Shown in pieces: positions 163 through 12,837 of a stretch of DNA of 13,020 nt. Positions within the stretch are counted from its first letter, which is position 1. Each line of letters opens with the position of its first letter. The position numbers were made by a program, and so were the translations under genes. Source of the DNA: a virus. Lineage: Duplodnaviria; Heunggongvirae; Uroviricota; Caudoviricetes. The notes under the pieces were generated by a model. The model was not told the origin of the DNA. It saw only the letters and a list, made by a program, of their open reading frames with translations, and ran no database searches. The stretch lies in the IMG/VR virus record IMGVR_UViG_2693429623_000016; one strand, written 5' to 3'.

Positions 163-540
163 TCAAATCCCCAGTGAAGTCACCATTGTCCTGAGAACTT
201 GCAGAACGTCATGATCATAACTTCCATCCAAACCGCGACGGCGAATTGCTTCTCGTATTACCGGAAGCAGTTCGCTGGAAATCTCGGTGCATATTTCACC
301 TGATAATACGCTTGGCTCAAGTGAGAATATTGGTGAACTTACGGTCTTGGTCTCGACAGTTTCAGAGTCAGTGCCAACATTATAAAGCTCAACGAAAGCG
401 GTCTTGATTTTCCGGGCCAGATCTTTTGCTGGCTCGCTTGCAATATCTTTCCCGATTTCTCGCAGCACAGAATGCAATGTATGAGCTGCTGTTTTCTGTA
501 CATCAGACGGTAAATCTTTAAATTCCATCGTCAGCCTCAT
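163..540 (-). CDS. hypothetical protein (125 aa), distal gene of leftward early operon
   Basis: Six-frame ORF; its ATG (538-540) overlaps the TGA of the upstream minus-strand ORF (ATGA coupling). No recognisable motif. An in-frame ATG four codons downstream (MEFKDLP) is an alternative start. Confidence 0.45.
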   Translation of the reverse strand: MRLTMEFKDLPSDVQKTAAHTLHSVLREIGKDIASEPAKDLARKIKTAFVELYNVGTDSETVETKTVSSPIFSLEPSVLSGEICTEISSELLPVIREAIRRRGLDGSYDHDVLQVLRTMVTSLGI

Positions 541-692
541 CAGTCAGTGTTTCTGGCTAACCAGCAACGCGCGCCAGATTCGGTTTTAAACGTTTTGCTT
601 TTGGTATACGTCATGGCGGTAAACGTTCCATCCTGGTTAGGGAACACGCCGCACACCAGAGATTCGTTGTTGCCAAGATCGATAGTATCCAT
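540..692 (-). CDS. hypothetical small protein (51 aa from the ATG at 690-692; ORF is open to an ATG at 746)
   Basis: Minus-strand ORF just downstream of the OL-like operators. The internal ATG at 692 is preceded by a GAGG Shine-Dalgarno-like motif, whereas the ATG at 746 has none. Function unknown. Confidence 0.4.
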   Translation of the reverse strand: MDTIDLGNNESLVCGVFPNQDGTFTAMTYTKSKTFKTESGARCWLARNTD

Positions 693-872
693 GCTGACCT
701 CATTTCCCCTTAACGCCGGGGTGGCGGAACAAAAAACCTGCTGCATAGTTAAAGATTGAACCCTGCCGTCATGTTCTTACGCCTCGGGCTGGCTACTTAA
801 CCCCTGACCACTGTCTGGTAACTCGAAGTATTGCCCTGCATTCTGTGGGGCGGGGTGGGTTGACGCCTGAAA

Positions 873-914
873 CAATAGCATCATTATTTTTTTGATGTAA
901 ATAGCATCGCTATT
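873..914. promoter_or_regulatory. OL-like operator pair with candidate leftward promoter (PL-like)
   Basis: Two 15-bp palindromes: AATAGCATCGCTATT (900-914, perfect arms AATAGC/GCTATT) and AATAGCATCATTATT (874-888). On the minus strand a TTTACA -35-like hexamer (revcomp of 895-900) and a TATTGT -10-like hexamer (revcomp of 873-878), 17 bp apart, overlap the operators. Confidence 0.5.
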
Positions 915-930
915 GTTTTTTGTTGGGGCA

Positions 931-954
931 AGAAAAAACCACCCTAAGGTGGTT
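931..954 (-). terminator. rho-independent terminator after the toxin gene (minus strand)
   Basis: Minus-strand RNA AACCACC-UUAG-GGUGGUU forms a 7-bp stem with a 4-nt loop, followed by a U-rich tract (UUUUUC). It lies 16 bp downstream of the toxin stop codon (971-973). Confidence 0.6.
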
Positions 955-970
955 CTGTCGGCGGGAATAA

Positions 971-1474: not shown

Positions 1475-1975
1475 TTAGGCGCGACGGCCTTTTTGTGCAG
1501 CTAACCACCGCGCAACCGTACGATCCATTGATTCTTTTTTATCTTTCATCTCCTGAAGCATGTGTTCTTGATCTTCTTTCGGAAAAGCTCTGAACGTATG
1601 GATTAAATCTCGTTCCATCGGCTCTACGGCAAACGGTAGTTCATCCTCTGTTTGTTCTGTGTCTGCTGGTAATGCGACTATGTTATCTTGCTGTGGTTCT
1701 CGACAATACATCCTTGCAATTTGCAGCAAATCTACCATGTCTGGCCTGATTGACTCAGGGGGAACTTTCAGTAAGCCAGCAAACTTTAGAACAGCCTCAA
1801 GGTTTAGTGGGGTTTGACCATTTAGGTAGTGACTTACCGCCCCTTGTGTTGAAAACCCCATAATTTCCGCCGCACGTTCCTGAGTCAATCCCAACTGAGA
1901 TTTCTTTGCCATCCAGATTTCTTTCAGTCTTCTGGCGGCGTTGAGGTCGGTGTCTGACAATGATTTTCTTTTCAT
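1475..1975 (-). CDS. prophage repressor, HTH XRE family (RacR/cI-type, no S24 peptidase domain)
   Basis: HTH_XRE-like segment (LTQERAAEIMGFSTQGAVSHYLNGQTPLNLEAVLKFAGL). Transcribed divergently from the Cro-like gene across an operator-containing intergenic region. The ORF is open to a GTG at 2005; the ATG at 1973-1975 was chosen as start. No LexA-like Ser/Lys protease motifs are visible in the C-terminus. Confidence 0.75.
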   Translation of the reverse strand: MKRKSLSDTDLNAARRLKEIWMAKKSQLGLTQERAAEIMGFSTQGAVSHYLNGQTPLNLEAVLKFAGLLKVPPESIRPDMVDLLQIARMYCREPQQDNIVALPADTEQTEDELPFAVEPMERDLIHTFRAFPKEDQEHMLQEMKDKKESMDRTVARWLAAQKGRRA

Positions 1976-2010
1976 ACATCCAATTCTAATAAGATTGCTA
2001 ATCACTTTGA

Positions 2011-2053
2011 AATAGCATCACTATTTACTTTTAAAAATAACAGTGCTATTAAT
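2011..2053. promoter_or_regulatory. OR-like operator pair with candidate rightward promoter (PR-like)
   Basis: Palindromes AATAGCATCACTATT (2011-2025) and AATAACAGTGCTATT (2036-2050) share the half-site with the OL-like sites. Candidate -35 TTTACT (2024-2029), 17-bp spacer, then extended -10 TGcTATTAA (2044-2052), upstream of the Cro-like ATG at 2087. Confidence 0.5.
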
Positions 2054-2086
2054 TATGCATTGGTAACACATCACATAGGGCGGATT

Positions 2087-2350
2087 ATGAATCTTGGAGA
2101 ATATTTGCATCATTTTCATATAACCCAGAGTTCATTTGCTGAGATTGTTGGCGCATCCCAAGGGATGGTCAGCCACGTTATAACGGGGCGTGCAAAACTT
2201 ACAGGAGAAAAAATATTACGTTGGTGTGAAGCAACGGGATGGGTGGTGACCCCACATGAGATTGACAGTAAAACCTACCCCAACCCAACTGACGGCTTGC
2301 CTGCTGAGTTTCAGGCTAACACACAACCATCGGCGGGGGTTGATTCATGA
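2087..2350 (+). CDS. Cro-like small HTH protein (YdaS-like)
   Basis: Small ORF divergent from the repressor, with an HTH-like segment (SQGMVSHVITGRAKLTGEKILRWCEATG). An AGGG motif precedes the ATG at 2087; the ORF is open to a TTG at 2060. Its stop overlaps the next gene's start (ATGA at 2347-2350). Confidence 0.65.
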   Translation: MNLGEYLHHFHITQSSFAEIVGASQGMVSHVITGRAKLTGEKILRWCEATGWVVTPHEIDSKTYPNPTDGLPAEFQANTQPSAGVDS

Positions 2351-2772
2351 AAATCAAGCATGAACACATCCGCATGGCGATGAAAGCCTGGGCGCATCCG
2401 GACGGTGAAAAAGTTCCGGCAGCTGAAATAACCAGGGTTTATTTCGAACTGGGAATGACGTTTCCGGTTCTGCATAACGACAGCAAGCACAACACGCTTT
2501 ATCTCAACACCCAAAAGATTTTCCGTTGGCTGGATAAAGACACCCCTGACGCTGTTGAAAAAATTCAGGCGTTGTTACCTGCGATCGAAAGGGCAATGCC
2601 ACCTCCGCTGGTGGCTCGAATGCGCAGCCACAGTTCAGCTTATTTTCGGGAACTGGTGGAGACGCATGAACGACTGGTGAGAGACGCTGATGATTTTGTC
2701 GCAGTGGCAATCGCCGGTTTCAATCAGATGAACCGTGGTGGCCCGGCAGGAAATGCTGTGGCAGTACATTGA
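2347..2772 (+). CDS. YdaT-like protein (occupies the cII position in Rac-type immunity regions)
   Basis: 141-aa ORF beginning MKIKHEHI and ending …AVAVH, which matches my recollection of Rac prophage YdaT termini. Translationally coupled to the Cro-like gene. Assignment rests on recall and synteny only. Confidence 0.55.
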   Translation: MKIKHEHIRMAMKAWAHPDGEKVPAAEITRVYFELGMTFPVLHNDSKHNTLYLNTQKIFRWLDKDTPDAVEKIQALLPAIERAMPPPLVARMRSHSSAYFRELVETHERLVRDADDFVAVAIAGFNQMNRGGPAGNAVAVH

Positions 2773-2843
2773 CTGACAATAGCCATATCGAATCGCTCCC
2801 GGCAACTCGTGAGTAAAAAGATTCGGTATCAGAAGAGGTGAGT

Positions 2844-3908
2844 ATGGCTAACGCCTGGCTCAGATTATGGCATGACATGCCAAATGACCCTAAGTGGCGA
2901 ACAATTGCCAGGGTGTCAGGGCAGCCAATTGCAACAGTGATGGCAGTGTATATCCACCTCCTGGTGAGCGCGTCACGAAATGTCACGCGAGGTCACATTG
3001 ATGTCACGACAGAAGATTTGGCAAGTGCGCTCGACGTGACAGAAGAGGTAATTGATTCAATTTTGCAGACGATGCAGGGGCGGGTACTTGATGGTGATTT
3101 AATCACTGGATGGGAAAAACGCCAGGTGCTTAAAGAGGACAACGGCAATATTTCGCAAACCGCAAAATCTCCTGCAGAGCGCAAGAGGGCGCAGCGAGAG
3201 AGGGAAAGAAAGCGGGAACAAAATGGCGATTGTCACGGCGCGTCACGAAATGTCACGCACATGTCACGACGAGTCACGACAGATACAGATAAAGATACAG
3301 ATAAAGAAGATCAAAACACTATGGTCCATGGCGTAAAAAACGCCACGAACCAGGCAGGGGATGTTCAGACCGTCAATCCTGGTCAGCCAGCAGGCTCGAC
3401 ACCGGAAGCCGATTCAGCGTATGCGCTGAAAGCCGATTCGGGCGCTGTGCAGCAGGTGATGACCGCAAGGCCGGAGCAATCACTCCAACTGCAGCAGCCT
3501 GAAGCCGATTCCGCCATTCAGCGGGAAGCCGATCGGGTAGCCCCGGAAAACACCGGGCAGCCTGTGGGACGAGTGGATTATCCGGATGTGTTCGAACAGG
3601 TCTGGCGGGAATACCCGTTGCGTGCCGGGGCAAACCCGAAGAAATCCGCATTCAGTGCCTGGAAGGCCAGATTGCGCGAGGGGGTGCCACCAGAGACCAT
3701 GCTGGATGGTGTGAGGCGTTACGCGAGATACCTGGCGGCGACCGGGAAAGCGGGAACGGAATTTGTTCAGCGAGCGACGACGTTTTTTGGGCCGGACCGG
3801 AATTTTGAAAACCCCTGGTTGCTCCCGGTAAGCGGCACGAACAACCAGCGTTGTGTGAATCATATTTCTGAACCGGATACCGAAATTCCGCCGGGATTCA
3901 GGGGGTGA
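2844..3908 (+). CDS. phage replication initiator (lambda O analogue; YdaU position) containing internal origin-like iterons
   Basis: Sits immediately upstream of a DnaC-like gene, with RBS AGAGGTGAG before the ATG at 2844 (ORF open to a GTG at 2838). The middle is low-complexity and acidic, and the coding DNA carries iterons. The C-terminus ends …IPPGFRG just before the DnaC-like start; the same junction recurs at 5836-5856. Confidence 0.7.
   Translation: MANAWLRLWHDMPNDPKWRTIARVSGQPIATVMAVYIHLLVSASRNVTRGHIDVTTEDLASALDVTEEVIDSILQTMQGRVLDGDLITGWEKRQVLKEDNGNISQTAKSPAERKRAQRERERKREQNGDCHGASRNVTHMSRRVTTDTDKDTDKEDQNTMVHGVKNATNQAGDVQTVNPGQPAGSTPEADSAYALKADSGAVQQVMTARPEQSLQLQQPEADSAIQREADRVAPENTGQPVGRVDYPDVFEQVWREYPLRAGANPKKSAFSAWKARLREGVPPETMLDGVRRYARYLAATGKAGTEFVQRATTFFGPDRNFENPWLLPVSGTNNQRCVNHISEPDTEIPPGFRG
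2972..3008 (+). repeat. iteron cluster 1: four direct GTCAC(G/A) repeats at 10-11 bp spacing
   Basis: GTCACG at 2972, 2982 and 3003, GTCACA at 2992; an inverted copy (GTGAC) lies at 3045-3049. Confidence 0.6.
3232..3278 (+). repeat. iteron cluster 2: five direct GTCACG repeats at 10-11 bp spacing, followed by an AT-rich tandem motif
   Basis: GTCACG at 3232, 3242, 3252, 3263 and 3273. Immediately downstream (3284-3307) is gatacagataaa repeated twice within an A/T-rich stretch. Confidence 0.6.
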
Positions 3909-3914
3909 TGTGGC

Positions 3915-4716
3915 ATGAAAANNNNNNNNNNNNNNNNNNNNNNNNNNNNNNNNNNNNNNNNNNNNNNNNNNNNNNNNNNNNNNNNNNNNNNNNNNNNNNN
4001 NNNNNNNNNNNNNNNNNNNNNNNNNNNNNNNNNNNNNNNNNNNNNNNNNNNNNNNNNNNNNNNNNNNNNNNNNNNNNNNNNNNNNNNNNNNNNNNNNNNN
4101 NNNNNNNNNNNNNNNNNNNNNNNNNNNNNNNNNNNNNNNNNNNNNNNNNNNNNNNNNNNNNNNNNNNNNNNNNNNNNNNNNNNNNNNNNNNNNNNNNNNN
4201 NNNNNNNNNNNNNNNNNNNNNNNNNNNNNNNNNNNNNNNNNNNNNNNNNNNNNNNNNNNNNNNNNNNNNNNNNNNNNNNNNNNNNNNNNNNNNNNNNNNN
4301 NNNNNNNNNNNNNNNNNNNNNNNNNNNNNNNNNNNNNNNNNNNNNNNNNNNNNNNNNNNNNNNNNNNNNNNNNNNNNNNNNNNNNNNNNNNNNNNNNNNN
4401 NNNNNACAGCTACGACAACGGCAAATCCGGTGAAAAATTTTTACAGGAGCTTTGCGGGGTTGATTTGCTGGTCCTGGATGAAATAGGCATTCAGCGGGAG
4501 ACGAAAAACGAGCAGGTGGTATTGCACCAGATAATTGATCGCCGGACAGCATCACTGTGCAGTGTCGGGATGTTAACAAACCTGAATCATGCCGCAATGA
4601 GCACGCTTCTTGGTGAGAGGATTATGGACCGCATGACCATGAACGGTTGTCGGTGGGTGACGTTTAACTGGGATAGCTGGCGTTCAAATGTCAGCTTTCC
4701 GGGAGTTGTGAAGTAA
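3915..4716 (+). CDS. DnaC-like helicase loader, copy A (interior hidden by N-run 3922-4405)
   Basis: ATG at 3915 follows the O-like stop. After the gap the reading frame gives SYDNGKSGEKFLQELCGVDLLVLDEIGIQRETKNEQVVLHQIIDRRTASL…, homologous to the C-terminal half of the intact DnaC-like gene at 5863-6609. Stop TAA at 4714-4716. Confidence 0.7.
3922..4405. other. run of 484 N (assembly gap or masked sequence)
   Basis: Directly visible in the sequence. Confidence 1.
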
Positions 4717-5862: not shown

Positions 5863-6609
5863 ATGAAAAATATTGCGACAGGAGGCGTTCTGGAGCGTAT
5901 CCGCAGACTGACCCCACCACATGTAACCGCCCCATTCAGAACGGTTGCGGAGTGGCGCGAGTGGCAACTTGCTGAAGGCCAGAAACGTTGCGAGGAGATC
6001 AACCGCCTGAATCGTCAGTTGCGGGTGGAAAAAATCCTGAACCGCTCCGGCATCCAGCCGTTGCACCGGAAGTGTTCGTTTGCGAATTACCGGGCGCAGA
6101 ACGACGGTCAGCGACATGCACTGAGTCAGGCGAAATCCATAGCTGACGAACTGATGACAGGCTGTACGAATTTTGTGTTCAGCGGTAAGCCCGGCACCGG
6201 AAAAAATCATCTTGCAGACGCGATTGGCAACCGGCTGATGGCGAAGGGGCGTAGCGTGATTATCGTCACCGTGTCCGATGTCATGAGCGTGTTGCATGAG
6301 AGCTACGACAACGGCAAATCCGGTGAAAAATTTTTACAGGAGCTTTGTGGTGTTGACCTGCTGGTCCTGGATGAAATTGGCATGCAGCGGGATACGAAAA
6401 ACGAGCAGGTGGTACTGAACCAGATTGTTGATCGCCGGACGGCATCGTTACGCGGTGTGGGGATGCTGACAAATATTAACCATGCAGCGATGAATACACT
6501 TCTCGGCGAGCGGGTGATGGATCGCATGGTCATGAACGGCGGGCGCTGGGTGAATTTTAACTGGGAGAGCTGGCGTCCGAATGTTAGCCATTCGAGGGTT
6601 GTTAAGTAG
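5863..6609 (+). CDS. DnaC-like replicative helicase loader (AAA+; IstB/DnaC family), copy B, intact
   Basis: 248 aa with Walker A FSGKPGTGKNHLA and Walker B DLLVLDEIG. Collinear similarity to E. coli DnaC as I recall it (…NRSGIQPLHRKCSFANYR…LGERVMDRM…). Confidence 0.9.
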   Translation: MKNIATGGVLERIRRLTPPHVTAPFRTVAEWREWQLAEGQKRCEEINRLNRQLRVEKILNRSGIQPLHRKCSFANYRAQNDGQRHALSQAKSIADELMTGCTNFVFSGKPGTGKNHLADAIGNRLMAKGRSVIIVTVSDVMSVLHESYDNGKSGEKFLQELCGVDLLVLDEIGMQRDTKNEQVVLNQIVDRRTASLRGVGMLTNINHAAMNTLLGERVMDRMVMNGGRWVNFNWESWRPNVSHSRVVK

Positions 6610-6623
6610 TTTCAGGAGGATTT

Positions 6624-6808
6624 ATGGCGAAACCTTTTACTCCCGAACAGCGGGAAGAACTGAAGACGCGAATTGTGGAACTCGTGCATCAGGACGGTCG
6701 GGTCACGATTCGGCAGTTGTCAGATGAAACAGGTATCAGTCGTGCGTCTGTCGGTCGCTTATGCATGGAACTGGTCGCAAGTGGTGATGTATATAATTCT
6801 GGCTACGG
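6624..6808 (+). CDS. partial CDS: N-terminus of the small wHTH-like phage protein (copy B), cut off by N-run 6809-6819
   Basis: RBS AGGAGGA five nt before the ATG at 6624. Sequence is nearly identical to 7274-7458. Confidence 0.5.
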
Positions 6809-6819
6809 NNNNNNNNNNN

Positions 6820-7259
6820 TTGATGAAATTGGCATTCAGCGCGAGACGAAAAACGAGCAGGTGGTGCTGCACCAGATTGTTGATCGCCGGACAGCGTCGA
6901 TGCGCAGCGTGGGGATGCTGACAAACCTGAACTATGAGGTGATGAAAACANNNNNNNNNNNNNNNNNNNNNNNNNNNNNNNNNNNNNNNNNNNNNNNNNN
7001 NNNNNNNNNNNNNNNNNNNGATGAAATTGGCATTCAGCGCGAGACGAAAAACGAGCAGGTGGTACTGAACCAGATTGTTGATCGCCGGACGGCATCGTTA
7101 CGCGGTGTGGGGATGCTGACAAATATTAACCATGCAGCGATGAATACACTTCTCGGCGAGCGGGTGATGGATCGCATGGTCATGAACGGCGGGCGCTGGG
7201 TGAATTTTAACTGGGAGAGCTGGCGTCCGAATGTTAGCCATTCGAGGGTTGTTAAGTAG
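6820..7259 (+). pseudogene. DnaC-like C-terminal gene fragments (two partial copies flanking N-run 6951-7019)
   Basis: 6820-6950 encodes DEIGIQRETKNEQVVLHQIVDRRTASMRSVGMLTNLNYEVMKT, a variant of the DnaC core. 7020-7259 is near-identical to 6362-6609, the 3' end of DnaC-like copy B. Neither fragment has a 5' part. Confidence 0.5.
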
Positions 7260-7273
7260 TTTCAGGAGGATTT

Positions 7274-7643
7274 ATGGCGAAACCTTTTACTCCCGAACAG
7301 CGGGAAGAACTGAAGACGCGAATTGTGGAACTCGTGCATCAGGACGGTCGGGTCACGATTCGGCAGTTGTCAGATGAAACAGGTATCAGTCGTGCGTCTG
7401 TCGGTCGCTTATGCATAGAACTGGTCGCAAGTGGTGATGTATATAATTCTGGCTACGGGGTATTTCCCTCTGAACAGGCTCATAAAGACTGGCAAAACGC
7501 CCGCAAAAAGCTATCGAGGGTAAAGGTGAAGAAACCGGTTGTGGTTGATCCTGACCTTATCTGGTCATTACCAGACGGAGAAATACGCCGCTACGACAGG
7601 CGCCTGAATATAATCTGTCGCGAGTGCCGGAAGAGCGAAGCTA
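7274..7643 (+). pseudogene. small wHTH-like phage gene (copy B') truncated at its 3' end by the IS element
   Basis: Homology to the copy at 8915-9157 is lost after about position 7645, exactly where the IS terminal sequence (TGAGGT…) begins. The ORF then runs into the IS and ends at 7690. Confidence 0.6.
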
Positions 7644-7686
7644 TGAGGTGTACTGGCAATAGCGGACACTACCATTTGTTCTTTTT

Positions 7687-8592
7687 TTAAGCAGCCATCT
7701 GATGATATTTTTCCCTGAAGGCTGCCGGGGAGATATTCCCCAGACGAGAGTGACGACGCTGACGATTGTAGAAAATCTCAATGTATTCCCGTATTACTGA
7801 GATGGCTTCATCCCGGTTATTAAAACGATAGTGGCTCAGGCTCTCATTTTTCAGCGTTCCCCAGAAGCTTTCCATCGGAGCGTTGTCGTAACAGTTACCT
7901 TTACGCGACATTGATGTTTTCAGACCAGACTGCTCCTGTATGACCCGGTAATCGTATGCGCAGTACTGTGAACCTCGATCAGAGTGGTGGATTAGCCCGG
8001 CAGGTGGGCGCTGGCTCCTGAGCGCCATAAACAGGGCTTTACCTGTCAGCTCTTTTGTCATGCGCTCTCCCATGGCGTAGCCGACAATTTCGCACGTATA
8101 AACATCTTTGATGCCAGCGAGGTACAACCATCCCTCCTGTGTGGCAACATACGTCAGGTCCGCCACCCAGACCTGATTTGGTGCTGTAGGAGCGAACGTC
8201 TGGTTCAGCAGATTTGGCGCAACTGGCAGATTGTGGTTCGAGTTCGTAGTCGCTCTGAACTTGCGTTTCTGCTTACAGCGTAGCCTTAGCTCCTTACGAA
8301 GACGTGCCAGTCGGTCACGACCAACGATGATGCCATTCTCTGCCAGCTCCGTCTGGAGCCGCCGGGTTCCATATGTTTCGCGAGTGCGGATATGTGCCAC
8401 CTTAATCTCCAGTTTTAGCCGCTCATCACTTTGTTTTCTGTCTGAGGGTTCATGCTGTACCCAGTTGTAATAACCGCTCCTGGATACACCAAATACCTGA
8501 CACATCGCTTCAATGGGAAATTGTTGTCGCCATTGTTCGATTAACGCGTATTTTTCAGCGACTCCTGTGCAAAATACGCTGTTGCTTTTTTT
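7687..8592 (-). CDS. IS3-family transposase OrfB (DDE/rve integrase core), expressed as an OrfAB fusion by -1 frameshift
   Basis: DDE integrase-like sequence (…WVADLTYV…HHSDRGSQY…NAPMESFW…). The orfB frame is -1 relative to orfA. Slippery heptamer A_AAA_AAA at 8586-8592 (minus strand) lies within the orfA codons tta-aaa-aaa-gca. Confidence 0.85.
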   Translation of the reverse strand, partial: KKSNSVFCTGVAEKYALIEQWRQQFPIEAMCQVFGVSRSGYYNWVQHEPSDRKQSDERLKLEIKVAHIRTRETYGTRRLQTELAENGIIVGRDRLARLRKELRLRCKQKRKFRATTNSNHNLPVAPNLLNQTFAPTAPNQVWVADLTYVATQEGWLYLAGIKDVYTCEIVGYAMGERMTKELTGKALFMALRSQRPPAGLIHHSDRGSQYCAYDYRVIQEQSGLKTSMSRKGNCYDNAPMESFWGTLKNESLSHYRFNNRDEAISVIREYIEIFYNRQRRHSRLGNISPAAFREKYHQMAA

Positions 8593-8843
8593 AATATATC
8601 TCGCTCAAGGCGAGCTTCATTTAACGCCTTACGCAGTTGCAGAATTTCAGATTCCAGTTCAGCCACCGTGCGGGAACCAGGAGTACCGAGCCCTTTTCTG
8701 GCGGCGGTAACCCATTGTCCTAAAGTGCCTTCAGGAAGAGATAATCGGGAAGCGCCTTCACTGATCGAAAGTTGATTTTCAAGAACCGTTCTGACAGCTT
8801 CGGCTTTGAACTCTTTAGAGTAACGTTGGGTTTTTCTGCTCAT
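8541..8843 (-). CDS. IS3-family transposase OrfA (HTH DNA-binding and leucine-zipper part)
   Basis: 100-aa ORF MSRKTQRYSKEFKAEAVRTV…LERDILKKATAYFAQES, typical of IS3-family OrfA. Recalled as IS600-like. Confidence 0.85.
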   Translation of the reverse strand: MSRKTQRYSKEFKAEAVRTVLENQLSISEGASRLSLPEGTLGQWVTAARKGLGTPGSRTVAELESEILQLRKALNEARLERDILKKATAYFAQESLKNTR

Positions 8844-8914
8844 TATTAGCTCCTTCTGATGCCATTCTATTTCAGGAAGGAGTGTCCGTTAAACTCAGGC
8901 TACCTCANNNNNNN

Positions 8915-9157
8915 TACGGGTTATTCCCGTCTGAACAGGCTCGTAAGGACTGGCAAAACGCCCGCAAAAAACTCTCGAGGGCAAAGCTGAAGAAACCATC
9001 TGTGGTTGATCCGGACCTTATCTGGTCATTACCAGACGGAGAAATACGCCGCTACGACAGGCGCCTGAATATAATCTGTCGCGAGTGCCGGAAGAGTGAA
9101 GTTATGCAGCGTGTACCGGCTTTCTATCAGGGTGATTTTCAGGAGGCGGTACTGTGA
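8915..9157 (+). CDS. partial CDS: C-terminal part of a diverged paralogue of the small wHTH-like phage protein
   Basis: …GLFPSEQARKDWQNARKKLSRAKLKKPSVVDPDLIWSLPDGEIRRYDRRLNIICRECRKSEVMQRVPAFYQGDFQEAVL is about 90% identical to 7459-7643. The 5' part is absent; the sequence resumes directly after N-run 8908-8914. Confidence 0.5.
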   Translation, partial: YGLFPSEQARKDWQNARKKLSRAKLKKPSVVDPDLIWSLPDGEIRRYDRRLNIICRECRKSEVMQRVPAFYQGDFQEAVL

Positions 9158-9785: not shown

Positions 9786-11758
9786 ATGGCCCGCATGTTT
9801 GATACATTAGGATTTTACATTATGAATGTGCAACATTTTGATTTTTTTACAGATAATGAGTTTTCTAATCTGGAAAGATATCAAACTTGTAAAGCCATGG
9901 CCAAAGGTTATGCGGGCAATTACAAAACCGGGCAGTCAAGGTTGATGCATGCCCGCTCATACTGCTTCAGCATCGTAGCTGCATATTGGGATACCCTTGC
10001 AAAAAAGCAAAAAAGCAGCATTAAAATGAGGGCAGTACCGCACACTGTTTACATAGAAGACATTCCATGTGATGCACGCGAGCTCGCTGAACGAACAGGT
10101 GAGCTTATTGCTCAATTTCCGGCGGAGGACGCTGGATATCTGATTGGGTCAATTTATACGGTAATGCTGCCATCCGCTTACCGTTCGGAATTGGGGGCTT
10201 ACTATACCCCCCCACCTTTGGTAGCGCGTCTCTTGGACCTGGCTGAAAAGTCTGGTGTTGATTTTTCTCATGCATCGGTTATTGATCCTGCGTGTGGTGG
10301 CGGTGCATTTTTGGCACCAGTAGCCATTCGAATGTTAAAAAAAGACAAGGGGTCTTCCCCTGAATGGATGTTGAGGAGAATCAGTCGTCGTTTAAAGGGG
10401 ATAGAAATCGATCCATTTGCGGCTTGGATGAGTTTGGTATTGCTCGAATCTGTACTAATGCCACTATGTGTAAAGGTAAAACGTAGATTGCCTGAAGATA
10501 CAATTATTGTTGCTGATGCGCTTCAGCAAGATAAATTTTCTGGTTATGATCTTGTGGTAGGGAATCCGCCTTACGGACGTGTCACTCTCGATATTAAAAC
10601 GAGAGAAAAATATTCTCGTTCGTTATTTGGTCATGCAAATCTATATGGATTGTTCACCGACTTAGCTGTTCGCATGGTTAAANNNNNNNNNNNNNNNNNN
10701 NNNNNNNNNNNNNNNNNNNNNNNNNNNNNNNNNNNNNNNNNNNNNNNNNNNNNNNNNNNNNNNNNNNNNNNNNNNNNNNNNNNNNNNNNNNNNNNNNNNN
10801 NNNNNNNNNNNNNNNNNNNNNNNNNNNNNNNNNNNNNNNNNNNNNNNNNNNNNNNNNNNNNNNNNNNNNNNNNNNNNNNNNNNNNNNNNNNNNNNNNNNN
10901 NNNNNNNNNNNNNNNNNNNNNNNNNNNNNNNNNNNNNNNNNNNNNNNNNNNNNNNNNNNNNNNNNNNNNNNNNNNNNNNNNNNNNNNNNNNNNNNNNNNN
11001 NNNNNNNNNNNNNNNNNNNNNNNNNNNNNNNNNNNNNNNNNNNNNNNNNNNNNNNNNNNNNNNNNNNNNNNNNNNNNNNNNNNNNNNNNNNNNNNNNNNN
11101 NNNNNNNNNNNNNNNNNNNNNNNNNNNNNNNNNNNNNNCCTGTTTTCTTAATGTATTAAAACAGATGTCTACGCGTTTAGCTGATCTGGGATACTCAGTC
11201 TCTACAGGTCAGTTAGTCTGGAATCGATTTAAGTCGCAGTTGCGTACGACGAAAGGAAAAAATAGCTACCCATTAGTCTGGGCGGAATCAATAACTTCAG
11301 CTGGTTTTCGTTTTAGTGCAGACAGAAAAAATCATGTTCCCTATATCGATATAACCCCACAACAGGGTTTCCTTGTGACAAAATCTGAATGTGTGCTTGT
11401 TCAGCGGACAACATCGAAGGAACAGGACAGAAGGATTTTAGCGGCAATTTTACCTCAGGGATTTATAGATGAAACTGGTGGCGTAGTAGTTGAAAACCAT
11501 ATTAATATTGTATATTCAAACGGATTGTTCTCTGCGGTTCGCCCTGATGTTATTGATATGCTACTTAATTCGCATGTTGTCGATCGGGCGTTCAGGTGTA
11601 TAAGCGGAAGTGTTGCTGTTTCGGCCTATGAATTGAATTCAATCCCGTTGCCTTCTCTGGAGCAGGTGATGGAGATTCAATCGTTAATTGATGCTGGCGT
11701 CCACAGACGGATTATTGAGAGAACTATCGCTGGTTTCTATGGAGTGATGATTGCATGA
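9786..11758 (+). CDS. N6-adenine DNA methyltransferase, gamma class (Eco57I/TaqI-like catalytic domain plus C-terminal target-recognition domain); middle hidden by N-run 10683-11138
   Basis: Motif X-like GAYYTPPPLVARLL, motif I DPACGGGAFL and motif IV VVGNPPYG occur in that order. After the N-run the frame is open back to the gap and encodes a TRD-like region (LADLGYSVSTGQLVWNR … AYELNSIPLP). The two halves are in different frames relative to the N count, so gene continuity is inferred rather than seen. Confidence 0.75.
10683..11138. other. run of 456 N inside the methyltransferase gene (assembly gap or masked)
   Basis: Directly visible in the sequence. Confidence 1.
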
Positions 11759-12837
11759 ATCTGCCTGTTGTTCCCCCATTGAATGTTATCCGGGAAAGAT
11801 TACAATTAATTTTCCCTGAAGGGACTGAGAATCGTGGATATTTAATTCGGGAAATAGCTGCAAAAACAATTTTTGTCATGTTTTATGCTGGTGCGGTTGA
11901 GGGGCTGGGGCGATGGATAAGGCCCAGCCAGGTTGTAAGTATGGGAGATTCGCAGGCTGCTCTTACTGATGATGCGTCCAGAGAAAGCTGGGTAAAGATG
12001 ACTTTCTCTAAACAAAAGATAAGGCCTGCTGATGCATGGTATGCGGAAAATACGCGTGAGCCAATACGTGATGAAACTATAAAAAATGGCCTAATACCTT
12101 GCAATGCAATTGTTGAGCGTAAAGGTATACCCACCACATCCTCTCGTCCTCGTTACAGTTTGAATCGCTCTTTTGCAGCACTCTTTGATGCCGGGCTTGA
12201 AGGAGATTCGCTGCTGAGTGCAATAAGTTCCTGGCAAGAAAATCATTTGAACAAAGCCGCTCTTGCTAGGTTGCGTTTATTGAAATCAGGGGCAGTGATT
12301 GCTGCTGATGCCGTAGTCGTCACTTTCCCAAATGGAGAGAAGAGAACTTTAGCTCCGGGCCCGTCAAGTACAATAGCTAAGGCCGTCATCGAAGTTTTTG
12401 CTCCTAATTTTCTTAAGAATCCAACTGTGCTCTGGTTGTCTGAATCCGGGAATAAAGTTGTTGCTCAGGATGATGTATTGGCAAAAGCATTGGGGCTGAA
12501 TATTGATGCCTCAAAAGCACTTCCAGATATTATTTTGATTGATTTGGGAGAGGACCGAACGGGTTCGGACATGCTTGTAGTTTTCACTGAAGTAGTTGCG
12601 ACAGATGGGCCTATAAACAGGGAACGAAAAGTTACTCTCACTCATTTGGCTATTGACGCTGGGTTCAGCGAGAAAAATCTTGCATTCCTTACGGCATTTA
12701 TGGACAGAAGTGCTCTGCCTTTTAAAAAGGCAATACCAGAATTGGCGTGGGGATCTTATGCATGGTTTGCTTCTGAACCGGAGCACTTAATTGATCTTCG
12801 GGATGGTTATCCGGTAAAGATCAGCCAGAGAAAATGA
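11755..12837 (+). CDS. putative Type II restriction endonuclease (BsuBI/PstI-like?), partner of the methyltransferase
   Basis: 360-aa ORF whose ATG overlaps the methyltransferase stop (ATGA at 11755-11758). N-terminal segment IFPEG…AAKTIFVMFYAGAV…AENTREPIRDE resembles what I recall of BsuBI/PstI-family nucleases, which typically pair with Eco57I-type methyltransferases. No canonical PD-(D/E)xK motif was confidently identified. Confidence 0.5.
   Translation: MNLPVVPPLNVIRERLQLIFPEGTENRGYLIREIAAKTIFVMFYAGAVEGLGRWIRPSQVVSMGDSQAALTDDASRESWVKMTFSKQKIRPADAWYAENTREPIRDETIKNGLIPCNAIVERKGIPTTSSRPRYSLNRSFAALFDAGLEGDSLLSAISSWQENHLNKAALARLRLLKSGAVIAADAVVVTFPNGEKRTLAPGPSSTIAKAVIEVFAPNFLKNPTVLWLSESGNKVVAQDDVLAKALGLNIDASKALPDIILIDLGEDRTGSDMLVVFTEVVATDGPINRERKVTLTHLAIDAGFSEKNLAFLTAFMDRSALPFKKAIPELAWGSYAWFASEPEHLIDLRDGYPVKISQRK

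Follow-up and report, generated by a model that had tools for sequence, protein, structure and literature searches.

The analysed DNA is a stretch of 13,020 nucleotides from the IMG/VR virus record IMGVR_UViG_2693429623_000016 (Duplodnaviria; Heunggongvirae; Uroviricota; Caudoviricetes), referred to below as the window, and the locus in question is the immunity region of a lambdoid prophage centred on positions 1475–2772. There, a leftward gene for an immunity repressor is divergent from two rightward genes that encode a Cro-like helix-turn-helix (HTH) protein and YdaT, an analogue of the lambda transcription factor CII. The repressor gene is followed on its own strand by genes for an antitoxin and a toxin, and ydaT is followed by a replication initiation gene. 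Operator-like sites of one type accompany a repressor-maintenance promoter (PRM) and a rightward promoter (PR) between the divergent genes, as well as a leftward promoter (PL) on the far side of the toxin gene. The two operator regions are called OR (right) and OL (left) by analogy with lambda, and all features are collected in Table 1.

Table 1. Features of the immunity region, with positions in the window. Mismatches at OL and OR are to AATAGC-N3-GCTATT.
Feature	Positions	Strand	Details
PL-like promoter	872..901	-	-35 TTTACA (901..896), 18-nt spacer, TG-extended -10 TATTGT (877..872); found by scan
OL operator 1	874..888		AATAGCATCATTATT; 2 mismatches; overlaps PL -10
OL operator 2	900..914		AATAGCATCGCTATT; perfect palindrome; abuts PL -35
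Intrinsic terminator of the repressor-paaA-parE operon	930..955	-	GAACCACC-UUAG-GGUGGUUU, then U-run
ParE-family toxin gene, 96 aa	971..1261	-	Pfam ParE_toxin E = 2e-17; PDB 5cw7_B (ParE2) E = 7e-37
PaaA2-type antitoxin gene, 64 aa	1261..1455	-	Pfam PaaA2 E = 3e-23
Immunity repressor gene, 166 aa	1475..1975	-	XRE HTH; no S24 peptidase
PRM-like promoter	1983..2011	-	-35 TTCAAA (2011..2006), 17-nt spacer, -10 TAGAAT (1988..1983); found by scan
OR3-like operator	1988..2002		AATAAGATTGCTAAT; 3 mismatches; in PRM spacer; 23 bp from OR2, centre to centre
OR2-like operator	2011..2025		AATAGCATCACTATT; 1 mismatch; abuts PRM -35
PR-like promoter, inferred	2024..2052	+	-35 TTTACT (2024-2029), 17-nt spacer, extended -10 TGcTATTAA (2044-2052)
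OR1-like operator	2036..2050		AATAACAGTGCTATT; 1 mismatch; overlaps PR extended -10
Cro-like HTH regulator gene, 87 aa (positional YdaS analogue)	2087..2350	+	Pfam HTH_3 E = 4e-4; PHROG 35 E = 8e-17
YdaT operator OM	2340..2357		TTGATTCATGAAAATCAA; exact TTGATTN6AATCAA; centred on the ATGA
ydaT, CII-analogue transcription factor, 141 aa	2347..2772	+	Pfam PF06254 (YdaT_toxin) 36.9 bits, cut-off 21
Replication initiation gene (lambda O position)	2838..3908	+	PHROG 3729 E = 3e-250; next on the PR side

An initial annotation, made from the sequence, described the repressor as a protein of about 167 aa encoded within 1475–2772, with an XRE HTH and without a recognizable S24 peptidase domain, and our analysis bears out this description. 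The minus-strand open reading frame (ORF) at 1475–2005 opens at a GTG, both in the ORF table and in the sequence, while in RefSeq the gene of a 96%-identical E. coli locus starts at the ATG corresponding to 1975 and encodes 166 aa. Pfam HTH_3 is matched by residues 27–74 (E = 8e-9), and we distinguish a lambda-CI-like DNA-binding domain (residues 1–91; the N-terminal domain, NTD), a disordered linker (92–112), and a two-helix C-terminal domain (CTD) of the PaaR2/DicA type (119–165). The AlphaFold2 model, built from 25 sequences with a mean predicted local distance difference test score (pLDDT) of 78.5, is all-helical and has no strands: five helices form the N-terminus, the linker falls below a pLDDT of 50, and two further helices span residues 119–129 and 133–165. 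Pfam searches for Peptidase_S24 were empty for the whole repressor at E ≤ 0.1 and for its C-terminal 73 aa at E ≤ 10, and the linker and CTD contain no AG or CG dipeptide of the cleavage-site type. An S24 fold would also need more than the roughly 65 residues that remain past the linker. As the repressor has no S24 domain, RecA-stimulated autocleavage is not expected. The initial annotation had likewise considered induction by this route unlikely, a conclusion already published for prophage CP-933P of E. coli O157:H7, whose repressor PaaR2 has no autocleavage motif and shows no mitomycin C response (PMC8630535).

The two ends of the repressor have different relatives. Its NTD is a true homologue of that of lambda CI (39% identity), as seen from the phmmer match to 1lmb (E = 3e-9) and from Foldseek matches to 1rio, 1lmb, and 3kz3 at 39–40% identity, with root-mean-square deviations of 1.1–2.0 Å and target-normalised template modelling (TM) scores of 0.81–0.93. 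In the alignment with CI, the basic N-terminal arm is kept and acidic residues occupy the positions of CI Glu34 and Asp38, the residues of the positive-control patch; the recognition helix differs. The CTD is related to that of PaaR2 (52% identity over 44 aa, E = 5e-15; residues 123–166 only, by BLASTP), to that of the repressor in a second O157:H7 locus (56% over 64 aa), and, more weakly, to the helices at the C-terminus of DicA (29% identity across 51 aa, E = 2e-6). The NCBIfam DicA model (NF007257) matches residues 106–162 at profile positions 74–130 with 32.4 bits against a cut-off of 101, and full membership in the DicA family was rejected, as the match is below this cut-off and confined to the C-terminal helices. 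Homology to PaaR2 over the DNA-binding domain was also rejected, the PaaR2 NTD (PDB 7nkv) not being matched by the window repressor, and so was RacR as a relative (BLASTP E = 29). Among the homologues retrieved, those with 100% and 99% identity are labelled Shigella sonnei, and relatives with 75–90% identity are found in E. coli and E. albertii. In published work on CP-933P, PaaR2 is regarded as an analogue of CI "despite lacking sequence similarity". What is mildly new about this locus is solely that its repressor fuses a true lambda-CI-type DNA-binding domain to a PaaR2-type CTD.

The intergenic inverted repeat upstream of the repressor resolves into 15-bp sites of the form AATAGC-N3-GCTATT, spaced by 23 and 25 bp from centre to centre at OR. 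This specific pattern has 7 matches against 1.0 expected, a number reached in 0 of 200 shuffles, and the four sites with no more than two mismatches form two pairs, with 25–26 bp between the members of each. When the looser palindromic pattern is counted across the window at 3 mismatches, the total is not above chance, and OR3, the weakest of the five sites, is by itself not above chance either. Because the looser pattern is not significant, the case for the operators rests on the sites with at most two mismatches, their pairing, and their conservation. Pairs at the same 25–26-bp distance occur at both OR and OL in all fetched loci that share the NTD (L001, L004, and L007–L009), and no such pairs occur in the fetched loci with other NTDs, namely Rac, Qin, and the two O157:H7 loci (L002, L003, L005, L006). 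This comparative distribution is the decisive support for these sites as putative operators. Across the relatives, the half-sites are conserved and the central three bases vary. OL operator 1 is kept in L001 and L004, and both OL sites lie beyond the terminator of the repressor operon.

The promoter-like elements are interleaved with these sites. PR was read directly from the sequence; the scanner missed it, since the -10 element of PR ends in A. It overlaps OR2 and OR1, and the PL unit is a paralogous copy of the PR unit with a matching layout of operator, -35, and -10. On the repressor side, the PRM -10 ends 7 nt ahead of the ATG at 1975, which leaves no space for a Shine-Dalgarno sequence, and OR2 is centred at about -43 from the inferred PRM start. 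Because the -10 ends so close to the ATG, the repressor mRNA is probably leaderless, in keeping with a geometry like that of CP-933P, for which leaderless translation of the repressor was shown experimentally (PMC8630535).

On the rightward side, the Cro-like protein yields no PDB match at E ≤ 0.01 and shares 36% identity with the corresponding protein of the second O157:H7 locus. We rejected it as a YdaS homologue, as it does not align with Rac YdaS and is unrelated to the YdaS of CP-933P. YdaT matches PHROG 163, annotated as "CII-like transcriptional activator" (E = 3e-40), and the structures 3c4r (E = 4e-79) and 8bt1 (E = 3e-70), the latter being that of CP-933P YdaT, to which it is 77% identical. 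The initial annotation took the ATGA at 2347–2350 as a sign of translational coupling. The overlap itself is read directly from the sequence (Cro-like stop TGA at 2348–2350, ydaT ATG at 2347–2349), and it proves to be more than a coupling signal. The YdaT site has been defined as TTGATTN6AATCAA, and OM was footprinted at the end of ydaS and tied to a YdaT-activated repressor-establishment promoter (PRE) that feeds the repressor operon (PMC9986795). In the window, OM is the sole site that matches this definition with zero mismatches; the site recurs at the same junction in L004, L005, and L006 (CP-933P), and with one mismatch in L001 and Rac. Because OM is centred on it, the ATGA overlap is a regulatory site besides a possible coupling signal.

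Beyond the repressor, the Pfam scores for PaaA2 and ParE_toxin are both above cut-off, and the antitoxin also matches NCBIfam NF050103 (E = 3e-27) and the PaaA2 structure 3zbe (E = 1e-23). The paaA gene has its own GAGGAG Shine-Dalgarno sequence, lies 19 nt past the repressor stop, and overlaps the parE start by 1 nt; paaA and parE, on the same strand, are apparently part of the repressor's operon. The terminator at the end of this operon has a predicted RNA fold of -15.1 kcal/mol (z = -3.5), a stability that 0 of 200 shuffled sequences reached, and it is kept in L001 and L004. A further promoter-like site (1860–1888, minus strand; TTGACT, 17 nt, AATTAT) is situated within the repressor gene and faces paaA-parE. 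It could drive transcription of the toxin-antitoxin (TA) pair independently of the repressor, and it may equally be a chance match, with 4 such sites found and 2.8 expected. In CP-933P, the TA pair is transcribed in both switch states. The parE-paaA allele is near-identical in 2 of 5426 complete E. coli genomes, with other copies at most about 81% identical; megablast with this pair reached 6 E. coli genomes, and the O157:H7 loci were reached in the distant mode only. The flanking ydaT and DUF1391 segments, unlike this allele, are widespread, which suggests that the TA pair diversifies faster than its neighbours or is exchanged independently of them. For a 2-kb query covering positions 900–2900, at least 80% was matched in 72 of the 5426 genomes.

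When compared to the paaR2 region of CP-933P, which we located in an O157:H7 genome with published primers, the locus has the same gene order and orientation, with the repressor, PaaA-type antitoxin, and ParE toxin apparently in one operon. The divergent Cro-like and YdaT genes share the ATGA overlap and carry an identical OM there, a -10 element lies 6–7 nt from the repressor ATG, operator pairs are present at OR and OL, and there is no S24 domain. There are also differences: the NTD of PaaR2 (PDB 7nkv) is unrelated to the lambda-CI-like NTD of the window repressor, YdaS and the Cro-like protein are analogous by position only, and CP-933P has GTTTAGTAA-type repeats where the window has AATAGC-N3-GCTATT. 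The CP-933P repressor is shorter (123 versus 166 aa), and the ParE and PaaA alleles have diverged, with parE-paaA DNA about 76% identical over the parts that align. A homologue of the CP-933P system has been reported on CP-933M (PMC8630535).

The second O157:H7 homologue (L005) brings out the mosaic nature of the region. Its DNA is homologous to the window over the DUF1391 gene, parE, paaA, the repressor CTD, the Cro C-terminus, and ydaT (81% identity for YdaT, with 56% and 36% for the repressor CTD and Cro, as given above), whereas its 133-aa repressor has another XRE HTH and its operators differ. The homology covers 549–1602 and 2276–2770 with a gap between, and the swapped segment (1603–2275) is a classical immunity cassette: it comprises the repressor NTD with its linker, the operators at OR, and the HTH-bearing N-terminal part of Cro.

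Lambda resembles the window not only in the repressor NTD but also in having three OR sites 23 and 25 bp apart, in having OL and OR flank the repressor operon, in a geometry that fits a leaderless PRM, and in a cargo slot past the repressor. Unlike CI, the window repressor has no S24 autocleavage domain, so that no RecA-mediated induction is expected; the recognition helix and operators differ, and the cargo is a TA pair rather than rexAB. The protein at the Cro position matches generic HTH profiles only, and that at the CII position is a member of the YdaT family, for which PMC9986795 reports that similarity to lambda CII could not be detected. The label "Rac-type" in the initial annotation is apt for the architecture and for YdaT, but not for the other regulators. 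Rac has the divergent layout of repressor, Cro-like, and YdaT genes, a YdaT with 33% identity, a near-consensus OM at the ydaT start, a repressor without an S24 match in Pfam, and a left-arm DUF1391 gene with 88% DNA identity; in contrast, RacR and YdaS have no detectable similarity to the window proteins (E = 29 and no alignment, respectively), and no TA pair follows the Rac repressor. In the dicA-dicC region of Qin, the C-terminal helices of DicA resemble those of the window repressor and the left arm has the same ydfA-type gene, while the HTH domain differs and neither YdaT nor a TA pair in the operon is present.

We consider it highly likely (a probability of about 85%) that the locus serves a lambdoid prophage as its lysis/lysogeny immunity switch, which is of the CP-933P/CP-933M kind and has a different immunity specificity. 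It is a heteroimmune member of the characterised CP-933P class rather than a toxic module of a new type. By homology with CP-933P and lambda, the repressor would bind its 15-bp sites, three at OR and two at OL, through the lambda-CI-homologous NTD, and in doing so would turn off PR (the Cro-like, YdaT, and replication genes) as well as PL (the DUF1391 gene and leftward genes). When bound at OR2, it probably activates its own PRM, whose transcript probably starts, leaderless, at the repressor ATG. The small helical CTD of the PaaR2/DicA type would replace the S24 domain for oligomerisation and cooperativity, and the repressor would therefore be blind to RecA. The Cro-like protein would compete for the repressor's operators and so create a bistable switch, while YdaT, as the CII analogue, would bind OM at the cro/ydaT junction and give rise to a leftward, PRE-type transcript towards the repressor. 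This PRE assignment is based on identity with CP-933P around OM; activator-dependent promoters fit the consensus poorly. The repressor operon would run on through paaA and parE to the terminator at 955..930, and the TA pair would make the immunity region addictive. Repressor octamerisation, bistable expression, and TA addiction are known for CP-933P only, where the addictive element is PaaA2-ParE2 according to published work and where the whole region stabilises a mini-F plasmid via ParE2 (PMC8630535).

Several points weigh against this interpretation. What the sequence of this allele shows is its gene content, the homologies of the products, the geometry of operators and promoters, and the absence of an S24 domain. 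By sequence, neither the DNA-binding domain of the repressor nor the Cro-like protein is related to its counterpart in CP-933P, PaaR2 and YdaS, respectively. The order of operator occupancy, PRM activation, and bistability would all be extrapolations from the related systems. Among the DNA elements, the OR3 match is weak (3 mismatches), the looser palindromic pattern is at chance level across the window, and the PR -10 was missed by the promoter scanner; for the repressor itself, the oligomeric state of the CTD cannot be read from a monomer model. Finally, an insertion sequence (IS) element disrupts the surrounding prophage and the assembly is gapped, such that the switch may now control little.

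The last of these points can be carried further, to the view that the prophage has decayed and left the module behind as an inert remnant whose switch no longer works. An IS3-family element (7687–8843) splits a DUF977 gene, gene fragments are duplicated, runs of N lie downstream, and prophages of the CP-933P type are cryptic. However, from parE through ydaT each of the five genes has an intact ORF of full length, and the operators, promoters, terminator, and OM are intact and conserved in relatives that are 83–96% identical; in CP-933P, although it is cryptic, the switch still works in reporter assays. We judge such decay of the switch to be very improbable. Scarcely better placed is the proposal of the initial annotation that the locus is a repressor-controlled toxic module of the RacR/YdaS/YdaT type, with a repressor that is essential because the derepressed Cro-like and YdaT products are toxic. 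According to PMC5700377 and PMC5700373, racR is essential in Rac and ydaS-ydaT is toxic when derepressed, the Pfam family is named YdaT_toxin, and the CP-933P study observed growth defects on prolonged overexpression of PaaR2 and YdaS. This proposal has nevertheless been overtaken: the toxin label of YdaS/YdaT was disputed (PMC5917428) and then rejected, with the two CP-933P proteins identified as Cro and CII analogues rather than a TA pair and YdaT found to be non-toxic (PMC8630535). The window repressor and Cro-like protein are also unrelated to RacR and YdaS, the closely similar CP-933P YdaT is a tetrameric DNA-binding activator whose operator is present here exactly, and a bona fide toxin, ParE, is encoded in the repressor's own operon. 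We regard toxicity of the Cro-like and YdaT products as very unlikely to explain the locus. Deletion of the repressor, suggested in the initial annotation as a test, would be confounded by polarity on paaA-parE, just outside 1475–2772.

Somewhat more plausible, though still doubtful, is that derepression is harmful through downstream prophage functions and not through Cro/YdaT or ParE, the repressor then being conditionally essential like DicA in Qin. Possible culprits, named tentatively, are division inhibitors of the dicB/kil type in the PL operon and in-situ replication, for which the O-like and DnaC-like genes would be expressed from PR. In the 96%-identical E. coli locus, ydfA, ydfB, ydfC, and dicB make up part of the left arm, and that of the window opens with the ydfA-like DUF1391 gene downstream of the operator-bearing PL-like promoter; replication genes follow ydaT, and the DicA-like CTD ties the repressor to the Qin DicA system. 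However, the window ends before any dicB-like gene, and the right arm is broken by the IS element and assembly gaps. This possibility is no competitor of the immunity switch, as it concerns the consequences of derepression only.

The combination of domains in the window repressor is part of a broader pattern. In an alignment of 22 sequences, one conserved CTD block is joined to at least four different HTH domains, the partners seen being the lambda-CI-like domain of the window, the PaaR2 type, a third XRE type, and DicA. The alignment also includes repressors of 240–255 aa (P0013-P0023) with two different HTHs in tandem ahead of the shared C-terminal helices; they are encoded outside the window, in relatives (L007:4001-4735, L008:1512-2246, L009:865-1599), and were seen in metagenome and Logan assemblies only. 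Their first HTH corresponds to the lambda-CI-like domain of the window repressor and their second to the XRE domain of 132-aa PaaR-like repressors. The tandem-HTH loci have the same genomic context and, at OR and OL, the operator type that goes with the first domain (AATAGC-N3-GCTATT). In these loci the repressor is followed not by paaA-parE but by genes for a 249-aa HipA_2 protein (PF20613) and a 275-aa DUF3037 protein (L007:4787-6360; also in L008 and L009). Judged by these contents, the position after the repressor appears to behave as a slot for variable cargo or defence genes, equivalent to that of rexAB in lambda.

A more tentative idea is that the helical CTD of about 50 aa might serve lambdoid phages as a portable module for SOS-blind oligomerisation, to which various DNA-binding domains can be joined interchangeably. 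If so, the window repressor would be a natural hybrid of a lambda NTD and a foreign CTD that loops OL to OR, about 1.1 kb apart, and the tandem-HTH forms might confer immunity to two phage groups at once. More directly, the allele links the lambda CI and PaaR2 repressor classes by descent of their parts, and it assigns a prophage switch from Shigella/E. coli to the CP-933P class, which has been characterised by experiment. It also corrects a misreading driven by annotation, since neither "YdaT toxin" nor "Rac-type toxic module" fits and the toxin is ParE, downstream of the repressor. Phage specialists will be unsurprised, as lambdoid phages swap immunity cassettes in mosaic fashion as a rule. 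With its clear and conserved operators, this allele lends itself to studies of the setting and flipping of a lambdoid switch that is blind to SOS.

The rest of the window contains several other features. Downstream of the PL-like promoter (163–746, minus strand) are a 68-aa DUF1391 gene (YdfA/YdaF-like), whose DNA segment is 88–90% identical to Rac (ydaF) and Qin (ydfA), and a 125-aa ORF without a confident family. The minus-strand IS3-family element at 7687–8843, presumably IS600-like, encodes an orfA of 100 aa (HTH_Tnp_1) and an orfB of 272 aa (rve); the DUF977 gene that it interrupts has its 5' part at 7274–7690 and resumes with its 3' part near 8882–9157. Runs of N and repeated partial genes, with 3' ends of DnaC/IstB-like ATPases and 5' ends of DUF977, occur at 3920–4420, 4465–4716, 5863–7690, and 10680–11140. 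The segment 6624–6800 recurs at 7274–7450, and DEIGIQRETKNEQVVL is present four times, with DEIGMQRDTKNEQVVL as a fifth, variant copy. The pattern has the look of scaffolding, or of several similar prophages whose copies were collapsed, and not of real tandem biology. Finally, restriction-modification cargo is found at 9786–12837 on the plus strand, comprising an N6-adenine methylase with an NPPY motif and matches to N6_Mtase and Eco57I, interrupted by N, a 197-aa ORF without a Pfam match, and a 360-aa endonuclease of the BsuBI/PstI type (PF06616, PF17728).

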